Source: Macrostomum lignano (Eukaryota). From it: a stretch of 53,290 nt of DNA. The notes beneath the pieces are model-generated. The model did no database searches, had not been told where the DNA came from, and saw only the letters and a program-made list of their open reading frames with translations. Each line of letters begins with the position of its first letter. Position 1 is the stretch's first letter. Below are positions 11,318 through 46,387 of the stretch, in pieces. The DNA lies in NCBI GenBank assembly GCA_002269645.1, contig NIVC01004250.1, forward strand, positions 1 to 53,290. The letters run 5' to 3'. The position numbers were made by a program, and so were the translations under genes.

Positions 11318-11320
11318 AAT

Positions 11321-11369: not shown

Positions 11370-11470
11370 ATTAATTGTTAATTCATTGCTTGATTCATTG
11401 ATTTATTGATTGATTTATTTATTTATTTATTTATTCATTGATTCATTGATTGATTAATTGATTGATTAAT

Positions 11471-11511
<41 letters not shown>

Positions 11512-11514
11512 AAT

Positions 11515-11587
<73 letters not shown>

Positions 11588-11686
11588 ATTAATTGTTAAT
11601 TCATTGCTTGATTCATTGATTTATTGATTGATTTATTTATTTATTTATTTATTCATTGATTCATTGATTGATTGACTGACTGACTG

Positions 11687-11720
<34 letters not shown>

Positions 11721-15692: not shown

Positions 15693-15785
<93 letters not shown>

Positions 15786-23327: not shown

Positions 23328-25146
23328 TCACATTTGTGTCGTTAAACAACTAGGTTTAGGCTCCCCTTCAACTGCAGAGGGTTCCTCCACTGATGCAGAT
23401 CTATGCCTCGTGTACGCAAGCTCCGCGATAAGGTCCAACAGCTCGCAAATCGTGAGCAGAGACATCCCCAGATAGATGCCCATGATGCCTCCGATGTCGG
23501 CAACGAAGTTCTCGAAGCCGTAGTCAATGGAGAACTTGAGCTTATCGCAGTCCATGCGCTGCGGTCGGATCTCAAGCTTCAACAGATTTGCATTAGCGAA
23601 GGCGATGGCGGCCGGAGACATGGAGGAGCTTTCAGAGCTGGCGTTGACCAGAAACTCGAGACCCGGAACCGAGATTCCCTTGAGAACCGCCGTGTCCCTG
23701 GCGTCGGCCACCGTAGTTCCAATGAACGCGCGGAGAGAAGTTGAGGTGGGCCAGCTGGCGCTGGAGATCTGGGCGTCATAGATGAGGCTCGAGCAGGGCG
23801 CGCGGCTCTTGCAGGCCGATGCGGTCGCTTCATCAAAATTTTTCGGAGTCGATTCGATTTTAGATACTTCAGCTGGCAGATGATCCAATATGTTACTCGG
23901 ACCGGACATGTTCAGAGTCGTCTGCGAGTGCCGAAGCCTCCAAGTTGTCGGAATGCCGGGCGTTGTAAAGTTGTAAATAGCAAGCGAATTTTCGTTGAAT
24001 TTGTCAAAGTAGCAGTAGGAATAGGAGTAGCTATGGCTGTAGGGTTCAAAGTCGTAGGGGTTCAGAAACTGAATGAGATCGTTAGTGCTAACGCAGTCGA
24101 ACTGATCTGCATTTCGCTCTTCTTGTCGCATTGAAAGCTCAATCTGAAAGTAATCAGATGGGTTCATTCACATTCAATATTGATTTAGCAATTCAGCGAT
24201 GCATCGAAGCAATGACCCACCTGATAGTACTTTCCCGGCTCGAGTAAAATCGAGGTTCCAAAATTGGACGGGTATTCCCCTGGCGGCATGAGGAAGAGCC
24301 GAACTCCTGAGCGCCTGTCTGGTCTGAGGCTATCACGCAGTGCCAGCGGCCAATCAGTCACAGGCATTCTTATGTAGACTGGTGTGCCCGTGTTGCGCTT
24401 CCTGTATTCAGCATAGACGGGCGATTCAACAGATTTCCCGGTAAGATTTGGCGCAGACGTCTCGTCCAGGTTGTCCAGAAACATCGCGATCTCAAGGCTG
24501 TTTCGACTTTGAATGCTTTGGAGCTCAGAGTTGTTGTCAGCTGACCATCTGAAGCATCTCAATTGGGTCTGGTGATAGAACTGAGTGAATGGCACTGGAA
24601 ATTCTTCAGCAAAGCCGTTCTTGTTTGCCTTGAGAGCACTGCTGAGGAGAACGGCTTGCTCCGCTCTGTGAGCCAGAGCACTTACTAGCAGAGTGTAGGG
24701 AATCGATAATGGGTAAACATAGCTTGCAGTGAGTTTCAGTTTTTCCACCTGTTGCGCAATATCTGCTTCACTTGAGCCTGGCGTATTCTTCAATGAATTG
24801 CGTACACTTCGCTCGATTGCAGCTGATATCTCTGTTAGGCTGTCGTTGAGCTGCTGGATGATGCTGTCGCTCATGCTCGCAGAGTAGGTGCCGGACACAG
24901 GGTTCTCGAAGCAAGCGTACACGTCCGGGAACTGGAAGCGCACGCTTTCGGCCTCTAGAGATGAGGTCACCTGCCGACTCTGCAGCTTGACTGCGAAGCC
25001 GACCAAACCGCGGAGGAGCAGGCACAGGAAGAAGAAGAAGAGCAGGAGCCAGGCCACGCGTATGAAGAGCGGCTTGGCGCTGACGAGTCGGGACAACCGT
25101 GCGCTGAGGTGGCCTCGCAGGCGGCTGGCAGTTTCAGCTGTAGCAT
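23328..25146 (-). CDS. DEG/ENaC/ASIC-family channel subunit, two exons, apparent 1-nt frameshift just after the HG motif
   Basis: Exon 1 25146-24221 (CEATSAHG | LSRL, TM1 RVAWLLLFFFFLCLLL, FPDVYAC); 77-bp GT-AG intron; exon 2 24143-23328 with TM2 FVADIGGIMGIYLGMSLLTICELLD (GxS filter). The frames join only if one T is added at about 25096. Confidence 0.85.
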
Positions 25147-26528
25147 GACAGACGTGCGCTTGCTTGGCTTTGCTGAAGGGAAACAGCAGTTGCGAGTGTT
25201 TGTTGGGGAAAAAGTTTTTGAAAATGAGCGCGCCAAAACTTTTTCAGCGTTTTTTTAACAAGTCTATCCGAATTTTGCAAGGTAGCCGATAGATCCTGTC
25301 GTGCATTCAGCCAGTTGACAGCAGCAGGTTATTAGAGTAAGAGGGGCAAAAATGCCCGCCTGGGTGCACCAATGAAATGTTCAGAGATATGGGAATGGGG
25401 GGCAGGAAGGAATAGGTTGGCTAGCATTGGTGAGTCAAGAAGGGGTTTGGGGCGATCGATAAAACGGGGTAAAGTACGAGTATACAGCGAAGGGGAGAGG
25501 CAGGGGCAGGTAAATAGTACAATATTTCATAATTGAATAGATGGAATATGAGCGTAGCAGCGCCTGATCAGCCTGAGCAAGTTCCAGTAAGGATCCTTTG
25601 TATACAGGAGTGTGTCAGCCAGTTCCGGTATTAGCATAATTGAAAGCAAATATTACCAGCGCGAATCAATAAACATATTTAGATCAGTATTTATTGAATT
25701 GGCTGTCACTGGCTGCATTTGTATAGGCTAAAAGAGTTCACACGTACTCCTGCGCATGCTCACTGCCTCCGATGGTTCAAGTGGCAAATTATTGTGTTTA
25801 ATTAATATTCTGGAAGCAGCAGCTGTGCAGTGGAATGCAATATGTTGTGTCGGTGGAAGGCAAGGTAATTAGATAAGGGCAGCTTAGTAGATGGCTCTGT
25901 GGTAATAGTTTTGCACTCTAGGATTGCCTCCTGGACATATCCTTCTATTTTCAGGTTCTGTCTGTAAAGTTCCCTCCCCCGGTGTCATGCGCCCCCCCCC
26001 CGGTGTCATGCGCCCCCCCCCCACGGGAGAGCTTGCCGACAGCTTGATCTATTGGAAAGCTGCAACTCAGAGCCAGGTGTGAGGTGGCGTAATTGATGTA
26101 CGTATACGTTACAGAAAACTGGAGGGGTCAGGCACACTGGGAGGTTTGGGGCGGGTCTGGGGAAAAATAGGGCACGATGGCACAACACCTTAATTATTTA
26201 AGAATAACTAAGCTGAAAAAGGCATTCATTCTTCGCATAGATTGCAAGGTTAATAAAATTAAGATTTTCATCATTTGGGATAGTTTGAACTACGACGTTT
26301 GCTTTGGGAAGTTTGTTTTCGAGGAATTTACTTGTCAACGTTATTTTGCGGAGTTTTTTCGGAGTTATTTGGGCAAAATCCATCTCGACTTTACTTTTAG
26401 TCCCTCTACTTTAGCTGTCCACGGCAGGTACATTTATTCCAACGAGAATAAAATTAGTATACATGTACGAGTATTTTCATGAAGTAGGCGCTCAATACGA
26501 AATCAAGGGCAACTCTAGCAGAAGGATG

Positions 26529-27676
26529 TGAAGTGGTTGCTTGTACTTTCCTCGATAGCGTCTAGAGGTGGCCTGGTAGGTCTTTGAATCCCACCGCTGC
26601 CACCAGTGAAGTACTTGGTTCCGGCTACTTCCCTGTCAGTCACGTGAGCTGCCTACTTTGAGCTCTTGGTAGACTCTCCCAGGAAGCCTTCTAGCAATTC
26701 TTAGTAGCGTTGGTAGTGCTGCCACCAGCCCGCTCGGATCTTGTCCTTCGATGAGGGAGACTCCGGGCTGAGCGAAATAAACGAGACACGAGAACTCAGC
26801 ACGCCGTGCAGGTTTGACAGTTCGTACCGGTGCACACCTCGTCAGCGGTCCTGCCGGGCTCAAGTGCGGGGATGAGGAACTGTGCTAGTCTCTGTTAGTT
26901 CGGTTGGGCTTTAACACACTCAAAGACACACAGTCGAAGATGGATCAGAAATCAGATAGGTTGGCTAAGGCCTAGCGCAAGCTGCGCTGGACTTCCAAGA
27001 GAGCAGTTATTAGAAGAGTTAACTCATAGGTAAACGAGAGGTTTCACAGAGGGTCGGGCGGTTGCCAAACAGAGGCACGAGAGGCCCGTACTTATAGGGT
27101 AGCGGATCGATTTCACCATACCGTGCAACACCCCATTGCGCCAGAGTGCGCAAGGCCGCTCTCACTGCCCCCAATCTGGCGTGAATCAGTTCTATTTTTA
27201 GAAACAGGCGCGGAACCCTCAATTTGAGAGGCAAGGACGCCATTCCTAATTTAGAGCCTGACACCCGAGATTGCACAAGGCAGCGCAAGAAAAGGACAGA
27301 GCGCCGGGGCACGTGATCCGCTCCCGTACGGCCAGACAGAGAGTACAGCCAGAACTGGCTGGACTCGAGCCAAGAGAACGCAGCCACACAAAAAGGGGGA
27401 AGGAGACAGACAAAGAATGAAACAAGGACAGGCTGAGCGGAGAAGCTCAGACGCTGGGAACGCAAACGAACCGGAAAAAGGGGGGGACAAAAGGGAGCGC
27501 AGGCAGACAAAAGGACAACGAGGGAGGGAGAGGGAGAGAGAGGAGTGGGAGAGGGAGAGAGAGAGGGAGAGGGAGAGAGGGAGGGAGAGCTGCGGCCAGC
27601 GGCAGCCAACAGCTCAGGAGGGCGCAGGGCACAGCTGACAAAGGGGGCACCTAACACTAAACTAGTGCTCACTTCA
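26529..27676 (-). repeat. LTR (3' LTR of left copy), 1148 bp
   Basis: Near-identical to the other two LTRs; terminal inverted repeats; preceded on the sense strand by the PPT. Confidence 0.95.
26586..26605 (-). other. second, LTR-internal tRNA-Leu PBS (also 35941-35960 and 45298-45317)
   Basis: GAATCCCACCGCTGCCACCA followed by G-TGAAGTA, mirroring the true junction CCACCA-G-TGAAGTG 78 bp away. Confidence 0.9.
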
Positions 27677-27688
27677 CTCTCCCCGTTC
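27677..27688 (-). other. polypurine tract (sense GAACGGGGAGAG); second copy 37031-37042
   Basis: Purine run abutting the U3 start of each downstream LTR. Confidence 0.85.
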
Positions 27689-28246
27689 AAATGATGAGGC
27701 GGAGTGCAAGCGTAGCCGCTTTATTTAAAACAAACAAGTTAAATTGTACTTTAACAAAATATAAACTTCGGCGTTAATTTGAGTTTAGGCAGCATAAAGA
27801 TGGTAGAGATTGTACCTGAAGGATAAGCATAAAATGCATTAGTGTCGGATTAATACCGGCTGACCTGATTGAATGCAAAACGCGGCAATGTTAAGTAGGC
27901 GAGTTTGCTGTTCGAAATGCGGGCTGACGCCCTACTAAATGCCTATAGCCATGATGGGGGCGTCGGCCCACTAATAGAGTAAAACAAAGGACGCCTAAAT
28001 AAGTTGGTGGGATGCCGGGAGTCAAATGGCAGAGCCCGGGGAGAAGGCGCATGCGGCGAGAGGAGAAAATAAAATAATGCAGTTGCGCGCGACTTGCGCT
28101 TGCCTGGAGGGGGCCCTACCCTCTTTAGAGTTCAAAGTAAGGGCCAGGTTCAGCGTGGCATCAAGCAAAGAGGTGGGTGCGTCCTGGCGACGGCCGACCC
28201 AGCGGCGAGCACACCTGTCAGCGTCAAGGCTACCAGATCGGGCGGC

Positions 28247-31200
28247 TCAGGGCCAGGTGGCCTGGGCGATGCGGTCGGGCAAGTCCGGGACTCGGCCGGC
28301 CATCACACGGGCGATACGGCGGGCCACCGCCCTAAGCACAGCCGGGTGTTCAGGATGGCGGACCGCGGCACCGGCGATGTCCGCACCGTGGTCCATCGCG
28401 GCTTGGCGCTCGATGTCATCAAGAGCCCGCATCTCGGCCCAGATGGGCTCGTTGAAGGAGGGCCATTCGCCATCTTGAGCCGCCGCCACAAAACAGCCGG
28501 CGAGATGCTCGGCGACGGTGTGGGCTAAGCTGATGGGCACACTCGGTGTCGGCTGGAGGTCGGCGTCATGCGGGTTGGCTGCCTGAATGTATGCGTCGGC
28601 CCTGGATGGGCCCTCAGCCTGGGTGGCGGCATCGATGCAGCGGGGCTCGGCCGGGGAGTTGGGCGGGGCCTGCGGCAGAGCGAGCCGGAGCTCCTCGGCG
28701 AGGTCGCTCCAGCTATACGTAATCTCGTTGGCGTCGCTGAATTCAGCCTCGGAGGTCTGGGTGCCCATGGTCACCGATGTCGGAGCCCTGTTGGCCCCGG
28801 TCACAATCAGCTTTGCGGCCGCTGCTGCAGTTTTACCCGGGGGATCTTCCCGCGGCTGACTGGCGATGGGCTCCAGCGTCTCCGGAGTGGAAGACCCAGC
28901 CGTAGGGCCGTCTGCACCGAACGCGGCCGCAAAAGCGGCGAAGCTGGTTGGGCCTCCGGGTAGATGCGAGGGCGCGGCCGCCGATGGCCTTGCAGTGGTC
29001 ACCGGATCGACAGGTCGTCGGGGATGTCGCTGCCGGTGAGCCTCTGGTCCCGAGCTGACCCGTGGGTCATCATGACTCTGGTGGCTCGCCGAGGACCGCA
29101 AACGGCGGATCCGGGTAACGGAGTCTTCGCCCGTGAGGTCAATGACCTCCGGCTGCGAGTTCTCCCGTCGCTGGCGATGCCGTCCGCGTCCTCGGCGACG
29201 TCGCGGTCGCGAGGCGTCCCTTGACCGAGGCGTCTCGTCGTTACGGCGTCGGTCCGGCGGCGGCGATCGTCGATTGGGCGGCGGGGACGGGGACCGACTA
29301 TACGGAGTCTGGCCGAGACGCAATCTGGGATGTACGCGCTGGACCCAGGGAGGCCGGGGCGCACTTTCCCATTGGCCGGCAGCCGCGCCGATGGCGGGGC
29401 CAGCATCGGCGGGGCAGAACAGCTGTCTGCGCTGCGCTGTCGCTCGCTCGTCGGAGCTTGAGCGGTCCGTTCGCTTTGGCGGGCGAGATTGGTGCATTTC
29501 TGCGCTGAAATGGTTGAAATTTTGTGTGCGCATGCGGGCGGTGCGACTAGCGTACGTTTGCGCCCTAGTGTCGCTAATAAGAAGCCTCTCTGGAGGCCTA
29601 CGATCCCTAGCTAGCCTACCGAAACCTACAGGCTCTACAGGCGCTTCCACCGGAGTGGTGCATGGCGATGGTACACGAGACTGTACCGCAGAAAAAGGTT
29701 CGGGGGGAGTAGGGACATGGACGGGCGAAAAGGAAGCAGCAGGCACAGATGCATTAGAAACAGGCTCACGCAAGTGGCATTCACCATACGGCACTGGCTC
29801 ACGCCGAAGTGCACTTGCCTGGTTCGCTGGTGTCGTGTTCGGTCCACCTCCTGGCTGCACCTCCGGGATTGCCAGAGGCCGGAAGTACCACCAGAGAGCC
29901 GGCCTCACATCATCGTCCTCGTTGTCATCGGGATCTTCGAGCTCTTCCTCGGGAACCGGTGGCAGGGTCGCGGGTCCTGCACCGTCAGGATCATCTGGCT
30001 GCCGTCTGCGCTTCTTCGCCTTCTCGACTTCGGGATCTGAAATCATCGCGTAGTCAGCGTCAGGAACGTGGAGCAGGTTGCGGCGATGAACAACAAGTTC
30101 ATCCCGTCGGGCTCGCGGGTTGGGCAGTCTACGGCGAATCTTGTAGACTACCTCGCCTTTGGGTTTTACGACTTCGTAGAGTGCTTTGCGGGGTCGATGA
30201 AACTTCGCCGCCTCGTCCGGTTCGAGCACCGGGTTGTTGAGGAAAACCAGGTCACCGGGCTTGAGCTTCTTGGCCTTCGGCAGGTTGGAGTAGTGCTCGT
30301 CTCGCAGTTGCTGATGCAGATGCAGGCGTTCTTTAGCTAGCTCAGTCGCTTCGTCTAATCGGCGCTGGAAGTCCTTGACATAGTCAGGCAAGTCGGCATA
30401 CTCGGGCAGCTTCTTCAGCGCGTTGTCGATCGGCAGTCGGAAGTCACGGCCAAACACCAGGTAGTGGGGCGTGAATCCTGTCACCGGGTGTACACTAGAG
30501 CGGAGAGCCATCAGACAGGCTGGAAGGAAGGTGTCCCAGTCGTTGTGGTTTCGCTCGAGGAGGCAGGTGAGAACGCTCTTCAGCTGCTTGTTGAGGTTCT
30601 CGACTTGACCATTGGAAGCTGGTTGTACGGAGTTGTTGTAGTATGTCGAATGCCAAACAGGTTGCAAAACTTCTTGAAAGCTGAGCCAGTGAAATTGGTT
30701 CCTTGATCAGTGTGTATCCAGCATGGTACACCAAAGTCAGGGATCAAGCGCTCCTGCAGGATCTTGATGACCGTCTTGGCTTTCTGGTTCCTCATCGGAT
30801 AGGCGAACGGGTACTTCGACGTCGCGTCGCACAAGGTCAATATGTAGCGGTTCCCACTCTTGCTCCTCTGGGCAATAGGGCCTACTACATCGCAGTGTAC
30901 TCTTCCTAGTACTTCGCAGACTGGGAAGCTTTGAACTGGAACTTTGTCTCGCCTTCGCGATTTGCTTTCGAGACAGGCACGGCATCTGCTGATAAAATTC
31001 TCGGTGACACGGGCTAATCCGGGCCGCCAGAATCGTTCTCGCAGTCGTTTCAGCGTTTTTGTCTGGCCTAGGTGTCCACACAGTGGCGAACTGTGGAGCT
31101 CCTGGAGCACCTGGGCATCGAGGGCTTCGGGCAGGACAACCTTCGGGGACTGCTGGCCATCAGTCAGGTCGATCATCAGCAAGTCGTCCTCCACTCGCAA

Positions 31201-34200
31201 ATTCTCAAAATAACCGAGCAGGTTCCGCTGCTCCTTCGACAGGCGCAATCGGGCATCAAACTCTGGCTTCGGGGCTTCGTTCTTAACCAGATTGAGCACG
31301 TAGCTGATAGCTCGGTCGGCGCGCTGCGCGTCGACAAACTGTTGCCGCGTCATCGGCAACCTCAGAAAATCCGTGAGCACAGCGCGGCATGGCTGAGGGG
31401 TCATGACTCCCGCAGTCTCCGCTTCGGTGGCTCGCCGTTGATCACGCGACTCCGTCTTGTCGGCGTCAGGATTAGGTCGCTCCGAGGGACTTTGTCTCAC
31501 AACGTCGGCGTACGATCGCTGATCCCGTTTCGAAGTTCTCATCGTCGCTCTCTTGACAGGAATTTCCGCAGCTGGAGCAGTGCACTTGCCTCCACTGCAC
31601 AGCCCAGGCGACTCTTGGCTGTAGGGCGAGACGCAACACGTGAAGCACGCCTCGTCGCAGGCAGCCGTAGCCGTCGGCTCGATCATCGTCGTCATTGGGT
31701 GAGTCTTCTCCTGCACTGGGCGGTGTCGCAAAGGGGGACTCGACTTTCCGCACAGGCGATGAGCAGCTGTCTGTCGGCTCGGGGGACAGAGCGTTGACCT
31801 TGCAGCCGTCGCGAGAGTCTGGCCTCTGTCAACACGGCGAGAACTCTCAGCGCAAAACTCCGGGGAGTTGAACTTACATTGCTGGTCTGGATTCGCGTTG
31901 TGGGCTGTCATCAGGAGGGCTGCTTGTTCAGTGGCCTCTGAGTCGTAGTCCATGGGCGTCTCCAGGTTCCGAGACCCGCAGTCTTGGACATCATCAAGGA
32001 AGTCTACGTCAGCAGTGGCCTCCGAGGTTTTGTCCGGGCGAATCTCCAAGTAACAGCAGTCGGCGTGGGCGTCGCTGCGGAGGGCTGAGGTGTCAGTGGC
32101 CTCCGGGTTGGTGTCCAAACCGGTCTCCTGGCGTTGACTGCGGCGATGGTCGTCGTGCTGAAGGGCTGCTGGCGCGGTGGCCTTCAGGTCTTCGGCCAGG
32201 GCAGTCTTGGCCTCCTTGTTGCGAGTGCGGACCTTCTTCGAAAGGGCTGGTCTTGCAGTGGCCTTCCGGGTGGTGTCCAAGTCCGGCTCCAAGCTGGTGT
32301 CATCATCGTGTCGGGCTGCAGAACCGGGATGCTCAAGCAGTCGGCCATGTTCGAAGTCAACCGGTGGTGTCTCCGGGCGTCTTGACAGGGCGTCGGCGTT
32401 GGCGTGGTCCTTGCCTTTGCGATGGTGAAGCTGGAAGCGGAACTCGCTCAGTCGCTCAATCCAACGGCCCAAGATGCCTGTGACCTGCGTCTGGTTCAGC
32501 AGCCACAGCAAGGCCCGATGGTCAGAACGAACTTCAAACTTCTTGCCAATTAAATAATGACGGAAATGTCGCATCGCGTCCACGATTGCAAGCAGCTCTT
32601 TCTTCGTGACCGTGTAGCGCTTCTCAGGATCACGAAGCTTCCGGCTAAAGAATGCAATTGGGCGCTCGACGCCGTCGGATTGCCGTTGTCCAAGACAAGC
32701 GCCTATGCGAATGTCTGAGGCATCAGTGTCTAGGACAAACTTCACATCAGGATCTGAGTTAAACTCAGGCAGAGCGAGAACTTCAGTCGAACACAACTTC
32801 TTCTTCAACGTGTCGAACGCTACCTGGTGCTCATCAGTCCAATGCTGCCGCAGGCTGCCGATGTCCTTTCGAGTCAGGGCATGTAGCGGCGCAGCAAATC
32901 CAGCGTAGCCGTTGACAAACTTGTGGTAGTAATTGGCGAGGCCTAGGAATTGTCTCAGTTGAGTAACGGACTGTGGCACGGGCCAATCACGGATCTGCGC
33001 AATCTTGTCCTCCAGGTCTTCAGGCCGTCGGGAGTCACGACGTGGCCTAGATAATGCAGCTCCTTGAGGAACAAATGGCACTTCTTCGGCTTGACCTTAG
33101 GTTGGCTGCGATAATCCGCTGGAGTACAGTCCGCAGGTTGTCCAGCTGCTCCTCGAAGGTCACAGAGTGCACCACGATGTCATCCATGTAGCCAAGCGCA
33201 GTCTTTGGCGTCAGGCCGTCCAGGAGCTTATTGATGCAACGCTGAAAGCTGCCTGGACTATCGTGGAGACCCATCGGTAGAACATTGAAACAGAATTGTC
33301 CGCGGTCAATCACAGAGAACGCCGTCAGGTGCTGATCGCAGTCGCGCAGCGGGATCTGCCAGAATCCTTGGCGAGATCCAAGCTAGAGTACCACTGGGCA
33401 CCACGCAGCTTCGCGAAGGTCTCCTGAATGTGCGGCAGCGGGTACGGGTGATACACACACTTGTCGTTGAGAGCTCTGAAGTCATGCACCAGCCTGATGT
33501 TGCCGTCCTTCTTGGGCACTATCAGCATTGGCGAGTTGTAGCTAGAGTAAGCTGGGCGAATGATGTGCTTCGCCAGCATCTCGTCTAGCAGGGCGTCTAG
33601 CTTGTCCTTCAGATGAGGCGGGATCCTGCGCGGTGGTAGCGCAACTGGTGTCCGATCCTTCAGGATGATCTCGTGGGTCACCAGGTGTGTCAGGCCAGCG
33701 TCTAGCAGATGCTTCGAGAAGGCTGCTTGACACTCAACTAGTAGATCTCGCACTCTCTGTCGTTGATCTTCGGACAGCTCGCTGTTGATCTCGACTTCCT
33801 CTAGCCAAGCTGTGCTGGACTCTTCAGGGCTCCTTGGCAAATGTCGCACTTCAGGTTCCGGCGTCTCTTCCAGGTACATCAGGTCGGCAGTTCTAAGTGG
33901 TGTCGCAACACCAACGCGGATGCCCGACTGCAGGAACACCTCGCAGTCAGCAGTGTTGACGACCTCGATGTAGCCTCGACCTTCAGGCATCGTCATCAGA
34001 GCTGGAGCTGCTTCCAGAGTGTTGCAGCTGGGGTGCAGTCTCGACTTCACCAGCTCGACGATTGATGGCGATCCTCGGTTCTCGGGGTGGCCGACATCCA
34101 ACTGGACGGCCAACAGCGCTGAGCTTCTCGGCGGCAGAGTGCACTTCTCGGAGGTGTACACCCGGCATGATTGAAGCTCACGGCGCGAATATCGAACGGG

Positions 34201-34767
34201 AATGCACGCGCCATTGTTGAACTTTAGCATTCCTTGAGCGAAGTCCAAGTTCTGGCAGTGCTCACGCATGAAATTAATACCAAGCAAATTTTCACAATCG
34301 GTGACCGTGACCAGGAATTCGGTGTCCGCGACGACATCACCAAACTCCACCGGGATGATCACCTTACACGCAAGGGGTAGCTGCGTACCGTCGTACATGG
34401 TCACGCAATCCGGGATAGCATGCGATATAATACAACGAGGCATCCGACGTCTAACATTGGCCCAGGTCGACGCTCCAAGAAAGTTTTTCCGACTGCCGCT
34501 GTCTAGTAGGAAAGGGACTTCTCGGCCCGCCAATCGGCCGGTGACGTACGGATCAGCCTCACGCGCATGGATTTTTTGATCATCGGAGGTGTCCACGAAA
34601 CCTCCGGGCTCCGCGCCACTTACTGACGAGCGACTGTCGGACTGGGCATTGGCGCCTGCGCAGCCGACATCCTCTTCTTCTCGTGACCTCTCGGAGTCTG
34701 CCAAGTAGCCGGGGCTTGGGCTCTTCGGAGGGCGGTGCCGTGGGCGCTCTCCGGCTGGCCGTTTCCC
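28247..34767 (-). pseudogene. pol: pol of left copy (PR-RT-RH-IN plus C-terminal extension), interrupted by four 1-nt deletions as assembled
   Basis: Same motifs as the right copy; frameshifts at about 33370, 33097, 33012 and 30621, of which only 33097 is shared with the right copy. Confidence 0.85.
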
Positions 34768-35795
34768 TGGTTCTGGCGGAGCGGGCATTGGGCGTTACGG
34801 TGGCCTGGCTGACCACAGCCATAGCAGATCATGGCCTTCGTCGGCGGGCTCGTCTGCTGCTGCTGATCACGCTGAGCCAAGTCGCTGAGCAGCTTCTGCT
34901 GCTTCTCGAGTACTTCGGTCAAAGCCAACAGGGCTTGGGCAGTGGCGTCTGATATCGGGCGAGCGTCCTGCTCCCCGTCCAACATTCTAACCGGGGGTTG
35001 AGCGGAGCGCTGGGCCAGCTCTCTGGCACCTTCTAGACGGTGCAGCTCTCGAATTGCGGCAAGCAAGTTGTTTGGGCGCACCCAATACAGTCGTTCTCGC
35101 AAATCTGGGGTTGTCCGCAGGTCGGCAAGGAACTGATCAGCCAGCTCCTTCTCGCGGTCCTCGGGATGCATCCTCGGGTATGCACGCTCTCCTAGGGTGC
35201 GCAGCGAATCAGCGTACTCTTCTACGGACTCATTCTTGCCTTGCTGACGCCTCCTTAGAAGCTCTCGATACTCATCAGCGCCACCATGGCGCGCAAATCG
35301 CTCGATTAAACGCTGTTTAACCTCCTCGTAGCTGGCGAACCTTGGCAGATGCATGCTGGGCAGGGCTGGATACGCAGTAGACAGATCTAGACTCGCGATG
35401 AGGTGCTGCTTCATCTCGAACGGGTCGACGACTCGCTCCATCTCGCAACGCTGCTCGAACGCGGCAAGCCAGACATGAATGTCTTGACTTGGAGTAAATT
35501 TAACAATCTTAATCTGTTTACTCACCGGTCGCTCTATTTGCTGCTGCAGCGCTGCCATCATGGTCCTCAGGTCCAATGGTCTGACGGTCTGGCCAAGGTC
35601 ATCCAAGCCTCGCAGAAGCTCATCTGGCGGGTCCTCGGACACCTCGCTTCGTACACTTCGCCTCGGCGCGGGCCTCTGACAGAAGTCACCGGTCGTTGCT
35701 GCTGCCGCGGCGGCGTCTGCTGCCGCAGGCCTCGAACTGCTGATGTGCTGATCCAGCCGGCTGCTACTCCGGCTCTCGTCTCGCTCGTTGAACAT
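34620..35795 (-). CDS. gag: Gag, left copy (391 aa)
   Basis: ATG-initiated ORF after the PBS; capsid-like WLAAFEQRCE segment; CCHC knuckle CYGCGQPGHRNAQC. Confidence 0.9.
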   Translation of the reverse strand: MFNERDESRSSSRLDQHISSSRPAAADAAAAAATTGDFCQRPAPRRSVRSEVSEDPPDELLRGLDDLGQTVRPLDLRTMMAALQQQIERPVSKQIKIVKFTPSQDIHVWLAAFEQRCEMERVVDPFEMKQHLIASLDLSTAYPALPSMHLPRFASYEEVKQRLIERFARHGGADEYRELLRRRQQGKNESVEEYADSLRTLGERAYPRMHPEDREKELADQFLADLRTTPDLRERLYWVRPNNLLAAIRELHRLEGARELAQRSAQPPVRMLDGEQDARPISDATAQALLALTEVLEKQQKLLSDLAQRDQQQQTSPPTKAMICYGCGQPGHRNAQCPLRQNQGNGQPESAHGTALRRAQAPATWQTPRGHEKKRMSAAQAPMPSPTVARQ

Positions 35796-35864
35796 GCTGA
35801 TCTCGTAGCTGACCGAAAAGTCGTTCTCGAAAAAGGGCGGTTGGCTTGGGTGTTTCGAAGTCGG

Positions 35865-35882
35865 ATCCCACCGCTGCCACCA
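35865..35882 (-). other. primer-binding site complementary to the tRNA-Leu 3' end (second copy 45222-45239)
   Basis: Sense TGGTGGCAGCGGTGGGAT, 1 nt after the LTR end; matches the ...ATCCCACCGCTGCCA-CCA 3' end of metazoan tRNA-Leu(AAG/TAG) as I recall it. Confidence 0.88.
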
Positions 35883-35883
35883 G

Positions 35884-37030
35884 TGAAGTGGTTGCTTGTA
35901 CTTTCCTCGATAGCGTCTAGAGGTGGCCTGGTAGGTCTTTGAATCCCACCGCTGCCACCAGTGAAGTACTTGGTTCCGGCTACTTCCCTGTCAGTCACGT
36001 GAGCTGCCTACTTTGAGCTCTTGGTAGACTCTCCCAGGAAGCCTTCTAGCAATTCTTAGTAGCGTTGGTAGTGCTGCCACCAGCCGCTCGGATCTTGTCC
36101 TTCGATGAGGGAGACTCCGGGCTGAGCGAAATAAACGAGACACGAGAACTCAGCACGCCGTGCAGGTTTGACAGTTCGTACCGGTGCACACCTCGTCAGC
36201 GGTCCTGCCGGGCTCAAGTGCGGGGATGAGGAACTGTGCTAGTCTCTGTTAGTTCGGTTGGGCTTTAACACACTCAAAGACACACAGTCGAAGATGGATC
36301 AGAAATCAGATAGGTTGGCTAAGGCCTAGCGCAAGCTGCGCTGGACTTCCAAGAGAGCAGTTATTAGAAGAGTTAACTCATAGGTAAACGAGAGGTTTCA
36401 CAGAGGGTCGGGCGGTTGCCAAACAGAGGCACGAGAGGCCCGTACTTATAGGGTAGCGGATCGATTTCACCATACCGTGCAACACCCCATTGCGCCAGAG
36501 TGCGCAAGGCCGCTCTCACTGCCCCCAATCTGGCGTGAATCAGTTCTATTTTTAGAAACAGGCGCGGAACCCTCAATTTGAGAGGCAAGGACGCCATTCC
36601 TAATTTAGAGCCTGACACCCGAGATTGCACAAGGCAGCGCAAGAAAAGGACAGAGCGCCGGGGCACGTGATCCGCTCCCGTACGGCCAGACAGAGAGTAC
36701 AGCCAGAACTGGCTGGACTCGAGCCAAGAGAACGCAGCCACACAAAAAGGGGGAAGGAGACAGACAAAGAATGAAACAAGGACAGGCTGAGCGGAGAAGC
36801 TCAGACGCTGGGAACGCAAACGAACCGGAAAAAGGGGGGGACAAAAGGGAGCGCAGGCAGACAAAAGGACAACGAGGGAGGGAGAGGGAGAGAGAGGAGT
36901 GGGAGAGGGAGAGAGAGAGGGAGAGGGAGAGAGGGAGGGAGAGCTGCGGCCAGCGGCAGCCAACAGCTCAGGAGGGCGCAGGGCACAGCTGACAAAGGGG
37001 GCACCTAACACTAAACTAGTGCTCACTTCA
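35884..37030 (-). repeat. shared middle LTR, 1147 bp
   Basis: PBS on one side and PPT on the other, so it serves as 5' LTR of the left copy and 3' LTR of the right copy. Confidence 0.95.
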
Positions 37031-37600
37031 CTCTCCCCGTTCAAATGATGAGGCGGAGTGCAAGCGTAGCCGCTTTATTTAAAACAAACAAGTTAAATTG
37101 TACTTTAACAAAATATAAACTTCGGCGTTAATTTGAGTTTAGGCAGCATAAAGATGGTAGAGATTGTACCTGAAGGATAAGCATAAAATGCATTAGTGTC
37201 GGATTAATACCGGCTGACCTGATTGAATGCAAAACGCGGCAATGTTAAGTAGGCGAGTTTGCTGTTCGAAATGCGGGCTGACGCCCTACTAAATGCCTAT
37301 AGCCATGATGGGGGCGTCGGCCCACTAATAGAGTAAAACAAAGGACGCCTAAATAAGTTGGTGGGATGCCGGGAGTCAAATGGCAGAGCCCGGGGAGAAG
37401 GCGCATGCGGCGAGAGGAGAAAATAAAATAATGCAGTTGCGCGCGACTTGCGCTTGCCTGGAGGGGGCCCTACCCTCTTTAGAGTTCAAAGTAAGGGCCA
37501 GGTTCAGCGTGGCATCAAGCAAAGAGGTGGGTGCGTCCTGGCGACGGCCGACCCAGCGGCGAGCACACCTGTCAGCGTCAAGGCTACCAGATCGGGCGGC

Positions 37601-40600
37601 TCAGGGCCAGGTGGCCTGGGCGATGCGGTCGGGCAAGTCCGGGACTCGGCCGGCCATCACACGGGCGATACGGCGGGCCACCGCCCTAAGCACAGCCGGG
37701 TGTTCAGGATGGCGGACCGCGGCACCGGCGATGTCCGCACCGTGGTCCATCGCGGCTTGGCGCTCGATGTCATCAAGAGCCCGCATCTCGGCCCAGATGG
37801 GCTCGTTGAAGGAGGGCCATTCGCCATCTTGAGCCGCCGCCACAAAACAGCCGGCGAGATGCTCGGCGACGGTGTGGGCTAAGCTGATGGGCACACTCGG
37901 TGTCGGCTGGAGGTCGGCGTCATGCGGGTTGGCTGCCTGAATGTATGCGTCGGCCCTGGATGGGCCCTCAGCCTGGGTGGCGGCATCGATGCAGCGGGGC
38001 TCGGCCGGGGAGTTGGGCGGGGCCTGCGGCAGAGCGAGCCGGAGCTCCTCGGCGAGGTCGCTCCAGCTATACGTAATCTCGTTGGCGTCGCTGAATTCAG
38101 CCTCGGAGGTCTGGGTGCCCATGGTCACCGATGTCGGAGCCCTGTTGGCCCCGGTCACAATCAGCTTTGCGGCCGCTGCTGCAGTTTTACCCGGGGGATC
38201 TTCCCGCGGCTGACTGGCGATGGGCTCCAGCGTCTCCGGAGTGGAAGACCCAGCCGTAGGGCCGTCTGCACCGAACGCGGCCGCAAAAGCGGCGAAGCTG
38301 GTTGGGCCTCCGGGTAGATGCGAGGGCGCGGCCGCCGATGGCCTTGCAGTGGTCACCGGATCGACAGGTCGTCGGGGATGTCGCTGCCGGTGAGCCTCTG
38401 GTCCCGAGCTGACCCGTGGGTCATCATGACTCTGGTGGCTCGCCGAGGACCGCAAACGGCGGATCCGGGTAACGGAGTCTTCGCCCGTGAGGTCAATGAC
38501 CTCCGGCTGCGAGTTCTCCCGTCGCTGGCGATGCCGTCCGCGTCCTCGGCGACGTCGCGGTCGCGAGGCGTCCCTTGACCGAGGCGTCTCGTCGTTACGG
38601 CGTCGGTCCGGCGGCGGCGATCGTCGATTGGGCGGCGGGGACGGGGACCGACTATACGGAGTCTGGCCGAGACGCAATCTGGGATGTACGCGCTGGACCC
38701 AGGGAGGCCGGGGCGCACTTTCCCATTGGCCGGCAGCCGCGCCGATGGCGGGGCCAGCATCGGCGGGGCAGAACAGCTGTCTGCGCTGCGCTGTCGCTCG
38801 CTCGTCGGAGCTTGAGCGGTCCGTTCGCTTTGGCGGGCGAGATTGGTGCATTTCTGCGCTGAAATGGTTGAAATTTTGTGTGCGCATGCGGGCGGTGCGA
38901 CTAGCGTACGTTTGCGCCCTAGTGTCGCTAATAAGAAGCCTCTCTGGAGGCCTACGATCCCTAGCTAGCCTACCGAAACCTACAGGCTCTACAGGCGCTT
39001 CCACCGGAGTGGTGCATGGCGATGGTACACGAGACTGTACCGCAGAAAAAGGTTCGGGGGGAGTAGGGACATGGACGGGCGAAAAGGAAGCAGCAGGCAC
39101 AGATGCATTAGAAACAGGCTCACGCAAGTGGCATTCACCATACGGCACTGGCTCACGCCGAAGTGCACTTGCCTGGTTCGCTGGTGTCGTGTTCGGTCCA
39201 CCTCCTGGCTGCACCTCCGGGATTGCCAGAGGCCGGAAGTACCACCAGAGAGCCGGCCTCACATCATCGTCCTCGTTGTCATCGGGATCTTCGAGCTCTT
39301 CCTCGGGAACCGGTGGCAGGGTCGCGGGTCCTGCACCGTCAGGATCATCTGGCTGCCGTCTGCGCTTCTTCGCCTTCTCGACTTCGGGATCTGAAATCAT
39401 CGCGTAGTCAGCGTCAGGAACGTGGAGCAGGTTGCGGCGATGAACAACAAGTTCATCCCGTCGGGCTCGCGGGTTGGGCAGTCTACGGCGAATCTTGTAG
39501 ACTACCTCGCCTTTGGGTTTTACGACTTCGTAGAGTGCTTTGCGGGGTCGATGAAACTTCGCCGCCTCGTCCGGTTCGAGCACCGGGTTGTTGAGGAAAA
39601 CCAGGTCACCGGGCTTGAGCTTCTTGGCCTTCGGCAGGTTGGAGTAGTGCTCGTCGCGCAGTTGCTGATGCAGATGCAGGCGTTCTTTAGCTAGCTCAGT
39701 CGCTTCGTCTAATCGGCGCTGGAAGTCCTTGACATAGTCAGGCAAGTCGGCATACTCGGGCAGCTTCTTCAGCGCGTTGTCGATCGGCAGTCGGAAGTCA
39801 CGGCCAAACACCAGGTAGTGGGGCGTGAATCCTGTCACCGGGTGTACACTAGAGCGGAGAGCCATCAGACAGGCTGGAAGGAAGGTGTCCCAGTCGTTGT
39901 GGTTTCGCTCGAGGAGGCAGGTGAGAACGCTCTTCAGCTGCTTGTTGAGGTTCTCGACTTGACCATTGGAAGCTGGGTTGTACGGAGTTGTTGTAGTATG
40001 TCGAATGCCAAACAGGTTGCAAAACTTCTTGAAAGCTGAGCCAGTGAAATTGGTTCCTTGATCAGTGTGTATCCAGCATGGTACACCAAAGTCAGGGATC
40101 AAGCGCTCCTGCAGGATCTTGATGACCGTCTTGGCTTTCTGGTTCCTCATCGGATAGGCGAACGGGTACTTCGACGTCGCGTCGCACAAGGTCAATATGT
40201 AGCGGTTCCCACTCTTGCTCCTCTGGGCAATAGGGCCTACTACATCGCAGTGTACTCTTCCTAGTACTTCGCAGACTGGGAAGCTTTGAACTGGAACTTT
40301 GTCTCGCCTTCGCGATTTGCTTTCGAGACAGGCACGGCATCTGCTGATAAAATTCTCGGTGACACGGGCTAATCCGGGCCGCCAGAATCGTTCTCGCAGT
40401 CGTTTCAGCGTTTTTGTCTGGCCTAGGTGTCCACACAGTGGCGAACTGTGGAGCTCCTGGAGCACCTGGGCATCGAGGGCTTCGGGCAGGACAACCTTCG
40501 GGGACTGCTGGCCATCAGTCAGGTCGATCATCAGCAAGTCGTCCTCCACTCGCAAATTCTCAAAATAACCGAGCAGGTTCCGCTGCTCCTTCGACAGGCG

Positions 40601-43600
40601 CAATCGGGCATCAAACTCTGGCTTCGGGGCTTCGTTCTTAACCAGATTGAGCACGTAGCTGATAGCTCGGTCGGCGCGCTGCGCGTCGACAAACTGTTGC
40701 CGCGTCATCGGCAACCTCAGAAAATCCGTGAGCACAGCGCGGCATGGCTGAGGGGTCATGACTCCCGCAGTCTCCGCTTCGGTGGCTCGCCGTTGATCAC
40801 GCGACTCCGTCTTGTCGGCGTCAGGATTAGGTCGCTCCGAGGGACTTTGTCTCACAACGTCGGCGTACGATCGCTGATCCCGTTTCGAAGTTCTCATCGT
40901 CGCTCTCTTGACAGGAATTTCCGCAGCTGGAGCAGTGCACTTGCCTCCACTGCACAGCCCAGGCGACTCTTGGCTGTAGGGCGAGACGCAACACGTGAAG
41001 CACGCCTCGTCGCAGGCAGCCGTAGCCGTCGGCTCGATCATCGTCGTCATTGGGTGAGTCTTCTCCTGCACTGGGCGGTGTCGCAAAGGGGGACTCGACT
41101 TTCCGCACAGGCGATGAGCAGCTGTCTGTCGGCTCGGGGGACAGAGCGTTGACCTTGCAGCCGTCGCGAGAGTCTGGCCTCTGTCAACACGGCGAGAACT
41201 CTCAGCGCAAAACTCCGGGGAGTTGAACTTACATTGCTGGTCTGGATTCGCGTTGTGGGCTGTCATCAGGAGGGCTGCTTGTTCAGTGGCCTCTGAGTCG
41301 TAGTCCATGGGCGTCTCCAGGTTCCGAGACCCGCAGTCTTGGACATCATCAAGGAAGTCTACGTCAGCAGTGGCCTCCGAGGTTTTGTCCGGGCGAATCT
41401 CCAAGTAACAGCAGTCGGCGTGGGCGTCGCTGCGGAGGGCTGAGGTGTCAGTGGCCTCCGGGTTGGTGTCCAAACCGGTCTCCTGGCGTTGACTGCGGCG
41501 ATGGTCGTCGTGCTGAAGGGCTGCTGGCGCGGTGGCCTTCAGGTCTTCGGCCAGGGCAGTCTTGGCCTCCTTGTTGCGAGTGCGGACCTTCTTCGAAAGG
41601 GCTGGTCTTGCAGTGGCCTTCCGGGTGGTGTCCAAGTCCGGCTCCAAGCTGGTGTCATCATCGTGTCGGGCTGCAGAACCGGGATGCTCAAGCAGTCGGC
41701 CATGTTCGAAGTCAACCGGTGGTGTCTCCGGGCGTCTTGACAGGGCGTCGGCGTTGGCGTGGTCCTTGCCTTTGCGATGGTGAAGCTGGAAGCGGAACTC
41801 GCTCAGTCGCTCAATCCAACGGCCCAAGATGCCTGTGACCTGCGTCTGGTTCAGCAGCCACAGCAAGGCCCGATGGTCAGAACGAACTTCAAACTTCTTG
41901 CCAATTAAATAATGACGGAAATGTCGCATCGCGTCCACGATTGCAAGCAGCTCTTTCTTCGTGACCGTGTAGCGCTTCTCAGGATCACGAAGCTTCCGGC
42001 TAAAGAATGCAATTGGGCGCTCGACGCCGTCGGATTGCCGTTGTCCAAGACAAGCGCCTATGCGAATGTCTGAGGCATCAGTGTCTAGGACAAACTTCAC
42101 ATCAGGATCTGAGTTAAACTCGGGCAGAGCGAGAACTTCAGTCGAACACAACTTCTTCTTCAACGTGTCGAACGCTACCTGGTGCTCATCAGTCCAATGC
42201 TGCCGCAGGCTGCCGATGTCCTTTCGAGTCAGGGCATGTAGCGGCGCAGCAAATCCAGCGTAGCCGTTGACAAACTTGTGGTAGTAATTGGCGAGGCCTA
42301 GGAATTGTCTCAGTTGAGTAACGGACTGTGGCACGGGCCAATCACGGATCTGCGCAATCTTGTCCTCACAGGTCTTCAGGCCGTCGGGAGTCACGACGTG
42401 GCCTAGATAATGCAGCTCCTTGAGGAACAAATGGCACTTCTTCGGCTTGACCTTAGGTTGGCTGCGATAATCCGCTGGAGTACAGTCCGCAGGTTGTCCA
42501 GCTGCTCCTCGAAGGTCACAGAGTGCACCACGATGTCATCCATGTAGCCAAGCGCAGTCTTTGGCGTCAGGCCGTCCAGGAGCTTATTGATGCAACGCTG
42601 AAAGCTGCCTGGACTATCGTGGAGACCCATCGGTAGAACATTGAAACAGAATTGTCCGCGGTCAATCACAGAGAACGCCGTCAGGTGCTGATCGCAGTCG
42701 CGCAGCGGGATCTGCCAGAATCCTTGGGCGAGATCCAAGCTAGAGTACCACTGGGCACCACGCAGCTTCGCGAAGGTCTCCTGAATGTGCGGCAGCGGGT
42801 ACGGGTGATACACACACTTGTCGTTGAGAGCTCTGAAGTCATGCACCAGCCTGATGTTGCCGTCCTTCTTGGGCACTATCAGCATTGGCGAGTTGTAGCT
42901 AGAGTAAGCTGGGCGAATGATGTGCTTCGCCAGCATCTCGTCTAGCAGCGCGTCTAGCTTGTCCTTCAGATGAGGCGGGATCCTGCGCGGTGGTAGCGCA
43001 ACTGGTGTCCGATCCTTCAGGATGATCTCGTGGGTCACCAGGTGTGTCAGGCCAGCGTCTAGCAGATGCTTCGAGAAGGCTGCTTGACACTCAACTAGTA
43101 GATCTCGCACTCTCTGTCGTTGATCTTCGGACAGCTCGCTGTTGATCTCGACTTCCTCTAGCCAAGCTGTGCTGGACTCTTCAGGGCTCCTTGGCAAATG
43201 TCGCACTTCAGGTTCCGGCGTCTCTTCCAGGTACATCAGGTCGGCAGTTCTAAGTGGTGTCGCAACACCAACGCGGATGCCCGACTGCAGGAACACCTCG
43301 CAGTCAGCAGTGTTGACGACCTCGATGTAGCCTCGACCTTCAGGCATCGTCATCAGAGCTGGAGCTGCTTCCAGAGTGTTGCAGCTGGGGTGCAGTCTCG
43401 ACTTCACCAGCTCGACGATTGATGGCGATCCTCGGTTCTCGGGGTGGCCGACATCCAACTGGACGGCCAACAGCGCTGAGCTTCTCGGCGGCAGAGTGCA
43501 CTTCTCGGAGGTGTACACCCGGCATGATTGAAGCTCACGGCGCGAATATCGAACGGGAATGCACGCGCCATTGTTGAACTTTAGCATTCCTTGAGCGAAG

Positions 43601-44124
43601 TCCAAGTTCTGGCAGTGCTCACGCATGAAATTAATACCAAGCAAATTTTCACAATCGGTGACCGTGACCAGGAATTCGGTGTCCGCGACGACATCACCAA
43701 ACTCCACCGGGATGATCACCTTACACGCAAGGGGTAGCTGCGTACCGTCGTACATGGTCACGCAATCCGGGATAGCATGCGATATAATACAACGAGGCAT
43801 CCGACGTCTAACATTGGCCCAGGTCGACGCTCCAAGAAAGTTTTTCCGACTGCCGCTGTCTAGTAGGAAAGGGACTTCTCGGCCCGCCAATCGGCCGGTG
43901 ACGTACGGATCAGCCTCACGCGCATGGATTTTTTGATCATCGGAGGTGTCCACGAAACCTCCGGGCTCCGCGCCACTTACTGACGAGCGACTGTCGGACT
44001 GGGCATTGGCGCCTGCGCAGCCGACATCCTCTTCTTCTCGTGACCTCTCGGAGTCTGCCAAGTAGCCGGGGCTTGGGCTCTTCGGAGGGCGGTGCCGTGG
44101 GCGCTCTCCGGCTGGCCGTTTCCC
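37601..44124 (-). CDS. pol: Pol of right copy: protease, dUTPase-like spacer, RT, RNase H, long linker, integrase, ~430-aa extension; one frameshift at about 42453
   Basis: LLDSGS (PR); YMDD (RT); DTDAS, KELLA and SDHRAL (RH); HxxxxxxH...CRAC, VHCDVVGP, HTDQGTNF and NGQVENLN (IN). Confidence 0.92.
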
Positions 44125-45152
44125 TGGTTCTGGCGGAGCGGGCATTGGGCGTTACGGTGGCCTGGCTGACCACAGCCATAGCAGATCATGGCCTTCGTCG
44201 GCGGGCTCGTCTGCTGCTGCTGATCACGCTGAGCCAAGTCGCTGAGCAGCTTCTGCTGCTTCTCGAGTACTTCGGTCAAAGCCAACAGGGCTTGGGCAGT
44301 GGCGTCTGATATCGGGCGAGCGTCCTGCTCCCCGTCCAACATTCTAACCGGGGGTTGAGCGGAGCGCTGGGCCAGCTCTCTGGCACCTTCTAGACGGTGC
44401 AGCTCTCGAATTGCGGCAAGCAAGTTGTTTGGGCGCACCCAATACAGTCGTTCTCGCAAATCTGGGGTTGTCCGCAGGTCGGCAAGGAACTGATCAGCCA
44501 GCTCCTTCTCGCGGTCCTCGGGATGCATCCTCGGGTATGCACGCTCTCCTAGGGTGCGCAGCGAATCAGCGTACTCTTCTACGGACTCATTCTTGCCTTG
44601 CTGACGCCTCCTTAGAAGCTCTCGATACTCATCAGCGCCACCATGGCGCGCAAATCGCTCGATTAAACGCTGTTTAACCTCCTCGTAGCTGGCGAACCTT
44701 GGCAGATGCATGCTGAGCAGGGCTGGATACGCAGTAGACAGATCTAGACTCGCGATGAGGTGCTGCTTCATCTCGAACGGGTCGACGACTCGCTCCATCT
44801 CGCAACGCTGCTCGAACGCGGCAAGCCAGACATGAATGTCTTGACTTGGAGTAAATTTAACAATCTTAATCTGTTTACTCACCGGTCGCTCTATTTGCTG
44901 CTGCAGCGCTGCCATCATGGTCCTCAGGTCCAATGGTCTGACGGTCTGGCCAAGGTCATCCAAGCCTCGCAGAAGCTCATCTGGCGGGTCCTCGGACACC
45001 TCGCTTCGTACACTTCGCCTCGGCGCGGGCCTCTGACAGAAGTCACCGGTCGTTGCTGCTGCCGCGGCGGCGTCTGCTGCCGCAGGCCTCGAACTGCTGA
45101 TGTGCTGATCCAGCCGGCTGCTACTCCGGCTCTCGTCTCGCTCGTTGAACAT
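43977..45152 (-). CDS. gag: Gag, right copy (391 aa)
   Basis: Identical to the left copy except one Pro/Leu difference; CCHC knuckle. Confidence 0.9.
   Translation of the reverse strand: MFNERDESRSSSRLDQHISSSRPAAADAAAAAATTGDFCQRPAPRRSVRSEVSEDPPDELLRGLDDLGQTVRPLDLRTMMAALQQQIERPVSKQIKIVKFTPSQDIHVWLAAFEQRCEMERVVDPFEMKQHLIASLDLSTAYPALLSMHLPRFASYEEVKQRLIERFARHGGADEYRELLRRRQQGKNESVEEYADSLRTLGERAYPRMHPEDREKELADQFLADLRTTPDLRERLYWVRPNNLLAAIRELHRLEGARELAQRSAQPPVRMLDGEQDARPISDATAQALLALTEVLEKQQKLLSDLAQRDQQQQTSPPTKAMICYGCGQPGHRNAQCPLRQNQGNGQPESAHGTALRRAQAPATWQTPRGHEKKRMSAAQAPMPSPTVARQ
44118..44124 (-). promoter_or_regulatory. -1 programmed ribosomal frameshift site G GGA AAC (left copy 34761-34767)
   Basis: Canonical X XXY YYZ heptamer in the gag frame just after the knuckle; a -1 shift enters the pol frame (PGKRP); downstream AGCCGG...CCGGCT can pair. 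Confidence 0.75.
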
Positions 45153-45240
45153 GCTGATCTCGTAGCTGACCGAAAAGTCGTTCTCGAAAAAGGGCGGTTG
45201 GCTTGGGTGTTTCGAAGTCGGATCCCACCGCTGCCACCAG

Positions 45241-46387
45241 TGAAGTGGTTGCTTGTACTTTCCTCGATAGCGTCTAGAGGTGGCCTGGTAGGTCTTTGAA
45301 TCCCACCGCTGCCACCAGTGAAGTACTTGGTTCCGGCTACTTCCCTGTCAGTCACGTGAGCTGCCTACTTTGAGCTCTTGGTAGACTCTCCCAGGAAGCT
45401 TCTAGCAATTCTTAGTAGCGTTGGTAGTGCTGCCACCAGCCCGCTCGGATCTTGTCCTTCGATGAGGGAGACTCCGGGCTGAGCGAAATAAACGAGACAC
45501 GAGAACTCAGCACGCCGTGCAGGTTTGACAGTTCGTACCGGTGCACACCTCGTCAGCGGTCCTGCCGGGCTCAAGTGCGGGGATGAGGAACTGTGCTAGT
45601 CTCTGTTAGTTCGGTTGGGCTTTAACACACTCAAAGACACACAGTCGAAGATGGATCAGAAATCAGATAGGTTGGCTAAGGCCTAGCGCAAGCTGCGCTG
45701 GACTTCCAAGAGAGCAGTTATTAGAAGAGTTAACTCATAGGTAAACGAGAGGTTTCACAGAGGGTCGGGCGGTTGCCAAACAGAGGCACGAGAGGCCCGT
45801 ACTTATAGGGTAGCGGATCGATTTCACCATACCGTGCAACACCCCATTGCGCCAGAGTGCGCAAGGCCGCTCTCACTGCCCCCAATCTGGCGTGAATCAG
45901 TTCTATTTTTAGAAACAGGCGCGGAACCCTCAATTTGAGAGGCAAGGACGCCATTCCTAATTTAGAGCCTGACACCCGAGATTGCACAAGGCAGCGCAAG
46001 AAAAGGACAGAGCGCCGGGGCACGTGATCCGCTCCCGTACGGCCAGACAGAGAGTACAGCCAGAACTGGCTGGACTCGAGCCAAGAGAACGCAGCCACAC
46101 AAAAAGGGGGGAAGGAGACAGACAAAGAATGAAACAAGGACAGGCTGAGCGGAGAAGCTCAGACGCTGGGAACGCAAACGAACCGGAAAAAGGGGGGACA
46201 AAAGGGAGCGCAGGCAGACAAAAGGACAACGAGGGAGGGAGAGGGAGAGAGAGGAGTGGGAGAGGGAGAGAGAGAGGGAGAGGGAGAGAGGGAGGGAGAG
46301 CTGCGGCCAGCGGCAGCCAACAGCTCAGGAGGGCGCAGGGCACAGCTGACAAAGGGGGCACCTAACACTAAACTAGTGCTCACTTCA
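45241..46387 (-). repeat. LTR (5' LTR of right copy), 1147 bp
   Basis: Differences I saw from the other LTRs are single-base homopolymer-length changes; followed outside by the TSD GATG. Confidence 0.95.
45802..45807 (-). promoter_or_regulatory. candidate LTR TATA box (TATAAG)
   Basis: TATA-like hexamer near the middle of the LTR, downstream of a CT-rich U3; position is plausible but unverified. Confidence 0.35.

Follow-up and report, generated by a model that had tools for sequence, protein, structure and literature searches.

Background

The U5 end of a long terminal repeat (LTR) is normally treated as being set by a single primer site. In typical Ty3/Gypsy elements (Metaviridae) the LTRs run from TG to CA, a 4-bp target-site duplication (TSD) marks the insertion, a polypurine tract (PPT) and a defined pol order are present, and a tRNA primer-binding site (PBS) lies one base past the 5' LTR. 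The Macrostomum lignano element described here is like them in all of these features but unlike them in its U5, which ends, in both LTRs, in a variable array of units, here called cassettes, each made up of a CA end and a full PBS. Engineered HIV vectors with two PBSs, to go by the title of Voronin and Pathak 2004, reportedly show frequent dual initiation. The likeness to such vectors is the presence of two full PBSs per RNA; the cassettes, however, are natural, and their inner site rarely defines the LTR end.

Several natural systems resemble the cassettes in part. In one account of Ty3 and Ty1 (PMC5371799), the bipartite PBS supplies an additional tRNA-pairing sequence beyond the main PBS, but its second segment pairs another part of the tRNA, whereas the cassette sites repeat the same 18-20 nt and bring their own LTR end. 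The same account contains a model of Ty3 plus-strand transfer in which a second RNA can serve as the template for 5' R-U5, and it describes strict inheritance of the PBS; the interspersed perfect and bulged alleles reported below fit copying of the tRNA better. Drosophila gypsy (PMC1635307) also has two tRNA sites, there for tRNA-Lys, only one of which is required for cDNA synthesis, but the second of the two lies at the 3' end of the RNA, binds the anticodon and T stems, and has neither an LTR end nor a copy-number array. We rejected membership in the bipartite-PBS group (Ty3, Ty1 and Drosophila gypsy) because the inner site repeats the match to the 3' 18-20 nt of the tRNA and adds no different region. 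Self-priming of the Tf1 type, in which the PBS would pair with the element's own 5' end in place of a tRNA, was rejected because the PBS matches host tRNA-Leu (18/18). In mouse ETn, MusD and IAP elements, according to PMC7472051, the imperfect PBS is the commonest and perfect copies are scattered over the tree, a pattern attributed there to pressure from 3' tRNA fragments and reversion by tRNA copying; in the present elements, by contrast, the PBS change is an insertion of 2-3 nt that recurs, and spare copies that are perfect lie upstream, inside the LTR. A search of open full text found no natural array of units combining an LTR end with a PBS.

Results and discussion

The window, our term for the whole 53,290-nt stretch of contig NIVC01004250.1 that was analysed, contains a tandem Ty3/Gypsy retrotransposon at 26529..46387 of the minus strand, on which all the element's features lie. 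Its structure is LTR-internal-LTR-internal-LTR, and it is enclosed by one 4-bp TSD, GATG, at 26525-26528 and 46388-46391. The 3' LTR (26529..27676, 1148 bp) terminates at the outer junction, adjoining the flank; the shared middle LTR (35884..37030, 1147 bp) has a PPT before it and an outer PBS after it; and the 5' LTR (45241..46387) is likewise 1147 bp long. The PPT that precedes the 3' LTR occupies 27677..27687, with its second copy at 37031-37041. Mutual differences among the LTRs amount to one to four single-base indels, the two internal copies have seven differences, and the tandem element is young. Comparable tandem arrays of the same structure were seen in the same clade at L152/L154 (C3668), L291/L311 (C255) and L170 (C2137).

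Pol extends over 37601..44151 and is split in this copy into two frames, one with the RT part (42403-44151) and one with the end of RT, RNase H and integrase (37601-42535); pol of the other internal copy is broken at another place. Pfam domains follow in the order RVT_1, RT_RNaseH, Integrase_H2C2 and rve, which is the Gypsy order RT - RNase H - integrase. Upstream of RT, gag and protease gave no Pfam match; a CCHC knuckle in the gag-like frame (43977..45347) and a D-S-G protease-like motif were recognised by eye. By the features examined (TG...CA LTRs, TSD, pol order, tRNA PBS and PPT) the element is Ty3/Gypsy. Its closest named protein relatives are from Macrostomum lignano (60-62%); fish, molluscs and schistosomes supply others at about 50%. 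On either side of the element, at 23328-25243 and 47691-48461 (both minus strand), lie host exons that match an amiloride-sensitive sodium channel and angiotensin-converting enzyme. Elsewhere in the window, 47724-48682 is duplicated at 51966-52943 (88%), numerous minisatellite arrays occupy 4200-18050, and one more 10-base match to the tRNA-Leu 3' end occurs at 15037.

Each window LTR ends in a 78-bp cassette (26529..26606 in the 3' LTR, 35884..35961 in the middle LTR and 45241..45318 in the 5' LTR), which in the 3' LTR is of type A and consists of one nucleotide, a PBS copy, an anti-PBS arm, a spacer and a new CA end. The inner PBS (26586..26605, 35941-35960 and 45298-45317) is complementary over 20/20 nt to the 3' end of host tRNA-Leu(AAG/TAG); in all three LTRs it is preceded by TACTTCA-C, 78 bp inward of the LTR end. 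It is predicted to pair with the anti-PBS arm (26567..26580, 35922-35935 and 45279-45292); of 200 shuffled arms, 3 give an equally good fold. The outer, working PBS (45220..45240, with a second copy at 35863-35883) comprises a 1-nt spacer and an 18/18 match that gives way to a mismatch at position 19, and the TSD marks the LTR end here. A conserved inner box (26718..26728, 36073-36083 and 45429-45439) matches the complement of the tRNA 3' end over 10 nt and, in the window family, lacks a CA end. Just inward of it, near 26776-26782, is a T-rich hexamer that resembles a poly(A) signal of the antisense strand and was seen by eye in several families.

A sequence-only reading of the window had described two junctions of LTR end, single nucleotide and PBS lying 78 bp apart, and both the sequence and the coordinates hold. 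It placed an outer PBS at all three LTRs, which is right at 35863-35882 and 45220-45239; position 26529 is instead the element's right end and abuts the flank. The third 11-mer, said to lie 122 bp further inward, does so in two copies and lies at 121 bp in the remaining one. The proposed primer was confirmed in the host genome, where 12 of 12 T-arm pattern matches are tRNA-Leu(AAG/TAG) genes with an identical 3' end, and so were the mismatch of the outer site at tRNA position 19 and, from the TSD directly at the outer junction, the use of the outer end at this insertion.

Chance is excluded as a source of the cassette, since the genome contains 333 matches to the inner pattern and 0 to a reversed control, and the cassette is common to otherwise unrelated LTRs. 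Nor is the cassette an assembly artefact, because contigs of four public runs (four studies, tentatively taken to be RNA) span the junction, with depth highest on the cassette. No RNA ends are visible in these contigs. A tandem-PBS pattern had 0 matches in viral contigs; in metagenome contigs it matched one stretch, L287:700-1080, a 60-70-bp tandem repeat with a tRNA-Leu-PBS-like motif after CA and no visible LTR context.

To describe variation we surveyed 100 elements: the window unit, 20 found via a perfect outer PBS (20 of 24 matches) and 79 found via RT. The RT-found set derives from 99 of 150 matches listed, of 3416 candidates, less 20 that were truncated, duplicated or without an LTR pair. 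The TSD was verifiable in 76 of the 100 elements, 73 of them independent. On the 5' side of these 73 proviruses the number of full cassettes is zero in 40, one in 25, two in seven and four in one, in line with the earlier suggestion that related families might differ in unit number. A half-PBS unit takes the place of a full cassette in 15 of the 40, and 25 of the 73 have neither. LTR arrays in the window family are A, AA, AB, BA, B, BB, CB, BC, C and 0, with units of 74-94 bp (the L026 LTR carries a type C cassette). A 34-bp mini-cassette, with a perfect PBS and a 15-base tail but no hairpin arm, was observed at L195 and L196 (C255, C1205). The last 20 or so bases before CA ends are A/C-rich and hypervariable, at core ends and cassette ends alike (L069/L092 in C511, L160 in C199), and the 5' and 3' LTRs of a single insertion can differ only in this tail. 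In three leaders (L136, L146, L197) there are tandem repeats that start with the distal PBS half, and the outer PBS there pairs with the tRNA over 22 bases.

Full cassettes are present in families at 79% and 74-75% RT identity, and half-PBS units at 55%. The cassette start is the one part of the window LTR with clear alignments to these families, which span 49 nt at 92% identity in the 79% RT family and 42 nt at 88% in the 75% RT family; RT third positions in these two families are 44% and 37% identical, respectively (44, 37 and 32% across the families compared). A further alignment covers 28 nt at 93% together with the inner box (18/18), and none was found against the 55% RT group. The inner PBS is perfect in 55 of 59 cassettes, and family-specific substitutions, by inspection, fall mostly in loops or preserve pairing. 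The inner box also occurs in the families at 79 and 75% RT identity and is retained even where the PBS fits a different tRNA-Leu; as a tRNA 3'-end complement with a short foldable arm it was observed in all groups down to 55% (for example L304 in C2013, L197 and L207). Its retention at this distance contradicts the view that the third copy is a mere decaying relic.

Among 25 distinct cassette starts, 18 have a fold of PBS and arm that beats 190 or more of its 200 arm shuffles; because cassette types share ancestry, these do not amount to 18 independent cases. By the same comparison, 0 of 10 leaders behind a perfect outer PBS show such a fold. Dinucleotide shuffles of the complete 78-mer give folds like its own (z -0.69), and one family at 75% RT identity has cassettes without the hairpin.

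The outer PBS is more variable. It is a perfect AAG/TAG match in 38 of 94 elements (35 of 91 if three found only via the perfect pattern are set aside), and in 54 of the 94 it is interrupted by 2-3 inserted nucleotides. Inserted bases and their positions differ across at least five lineages, including the 55% RT group, whose PBS is best fitted by tRNA-Leu(CAG) plus two bases. Bulged sites such as those of L155, L135, L198, L201, L206 and L212 often show G>A where the seed of a 3' tRNA fragment would pair. We looked for a special host tRNA matching the bulged PBS and found none among the 12 AAG/TAG and 16 CAG-type matches to exact T-arm patterns. Copies whose pol is identical may carry either a perfect or a bulged allele, an interspersion that resembles the ETn/MusD pattern and by that analogy may reflect pressure from tRNA fragments.

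Cassette number turns over rapidly. In a sister family, one identical 241-nt U5 core was found with zero, one and two cassettes and one identical 400-nt core with zero and one, which implies that the number changes faster than point mutations accumulate. Cassette count and PBS allele also vary among near-identical or identical rows of a pol tree of 57 close copies from this genome only (fasttree), in which support is low and recombination likely. LTR isoforms of different length, each with its own TSD, had been anticipated, and they exist: besides the identical cores with differing cassette numbers, a solo LTR of the window family, L125, stops at the inner junction. A frozen one-off duplication, in which all ends would be outer and the inner PBS would decay, is excluded by the mixed arrays, the variable counts and the identical cores that carry zero, one or two cassettes. 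Cassette-free proviruses are as young as cassette-bearing ones: 32 of 40 of the former and 21 of 33 of the latter have no more than one LTR substitution.

Most insertions ended at the outer site. The two LTRs have the same count in 29 of the 33 independent proviruses in which full cassettes occur under a verified TSD, which indicates that the outer site set the LTR end. The same is true when the inner PBS matches better than the outer one. That the two priming sites proposed in the sequence-only reading are used on equal terms is not supported. Four proviruses have unequal counts under matching TSDs: C163, C2478 and C440 have more cassettes on the 5' side, and C206 has more on the 3' side. In C440 the counts are two and one and the inner end is not clean; in C206 they are one and two. 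Two others, C511 and C199, have differing 5' and 3' U5 tails under matching TSDs.

The reading that we favour, with a probability of about one half for the whole, is that these LTRs end in zero to four cassettes that are dispensable for the element and are likely swapped at plus-strand transfer, while the outer PBS in the leader primes. It is drawn from genomic footprints. Cassettes would be gained, duplicated, shuffled and lost during the plus-strand transfer step of reverse transcription. Identical PBSs flank every cassette, so plus-strand strong-stop DNA, whether it terminates in a tRNA copy or at CA, could pair at the inner PBS of a minus strand whose synthesis had run through the second RNA's intact U5 or had used an inner-primed RNA as template. 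The cassette would then sit between the new LTR and the leader, and the next round would put it in both LTRs. A perfect PBS would help the cassette to be captured, and the hairpin would reduce both its competition for the primer and its exposure to tRNA fragments; on this proposal the advantage in capture keeps the inner PBS perfect, and its folded state persists since an exposed site would enter competition for primer or attract silencing. Unequal counts and differing U5 tails under matching TSDs are what would be expected if the two U5s came from two RNAs. Against template swapping, slippage or gene conversion after insertion can also give unequal counts (C206 and C440), and the conservation would be explained just as well if the cassette benefited the element. 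The stepwise LTR growth that had been proposed agrees with the position of decayed half-units, which lie inward of full cassettes wherever both are present (seven elements, two lineages). The accompanying idea of leader capture does not stand for the present leader: the sequences of cassette spacer and present leader differ, and the spacer is therefore not the captured present leader.

A more elaborate reading, which we regard as rather unlikely in its entirety, is that the cassette is a selfish sub-element. Its hidden perfect PBS would capture plus-strand strong-stop DNA in mixed particles, which would carry the cassette from one LTR lineage or family to another more often than an even chance predicts and build up a polar array, and the working PBS would be bulged repeatedly to escape silencing by tRNA fragments.

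True dual priming, in which tRNA-Leu would prime at either site and the cassette would be a backup primer site, is improbable. The two proviruses most suggestive of it are C163 (TSD TAAT, cores differing at 1/996) and C2478 (TSD ATTA, 0/983), both of which have the cassette on the 5' side only and stop exactly at the inner CA. Cassette-free LTRs with an identical core exist for each of them, however (C2457 and C2102 for C163; C251 and C73 for C2478), so that C163 is not proof of inner priming, and on the sequences both ends are equally explained by inner priming or by a co-packaged cassette-free RNA. Given these cores, and the two-template or conversion events seen elsewhere, inner priming is unproven and bounded at about 2 of 33; it probably does occur, in at most about 6% of cassette-bearing insertions. 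The near-constant perfection of the inner PBS is in keeping with a backup role, as is the report, at title level, that engineered two-PBS vectors initiate at both sites. Opening energies, computed for 71 elements, favour it too: the inner and outer sites are 0-4 kcal/mol apart when both are perfect (17.2 for the inner and 13.5 kcal/mol for the outer site in the window). If the cassette were a backup, it would be called on chiefly in elements with a bulged outer PBS, but clean inner ends number 0 of 14 in that class against 2 of 19 otherwise, too few for significance. Hairpin masking was rejected as the sole cause of outer-site use, since with a bulged outer PBS the computed net binding is about 8 kcal/mol better at the inner site and yet none of the 14 has a clean inner end.

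It is similarly doubtful, taking its variants together, that the cassette is a regulatory RNA switch or a primer-loading site, whether the arm pairs alternately with the inner PBS and with freed 5' strands of the tRNA (PAS-like), or the masked site either loads tRNA or acts as a sponge for 3' tRNA fragments, which the bulged working PBS escapes. The deep conservation of PBS, arm and inner box is what such a role would lead one to expect, and the independent 2-3-nt insertions and seed-region G>A changes resemble how priming is traded off against silencing in mouse endogenous retroviruses, as set out in PMC7472051. The 25 proviruses without full or half cassette are nonetheless young, and neither arm nor leader exceeds its shuffles in complementarity to the tRNA 5' part (p 0.07-1.0).

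A neutral tandem repeat, arising from an old duplication of LTR end and PBS, DNA slippage after insertion and recent transfer between families, would account for the exact tandem pairs (C910, C1140, C723 and the 3' LTR of C206) and the decay of the inner half-units, but it is very unlikely, being largely refuted by the conservation of PBS and arm against near-saturated RT third positions and opposed also by substitutions that mostly spare pairing (by inspection), by mixed arrays (AB, BA, CB) that require different templates, and by counts and types that match between both LTRs in 29 of 33 proviruses, which indicates that arrays pass through retrotransposition.

Conclusions

U5 in these elements is a modular, heritable array, and their insertions record both the site that was used and the RNA that donated each U5. 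Plus-strand transfer, with one template or two and with the tRNA copied or not, thereby becomes testable in an animal Gypsy clade without engineering. So does the influence of 3' tRNA fragments on PBS evolution outside mammals, as perfect masked copies lie beside a repeatedly bulged working site. For annotation, the implication is that LTR boundaries and ages are mis-called when the 5' and 3' U5 derive from different templates.
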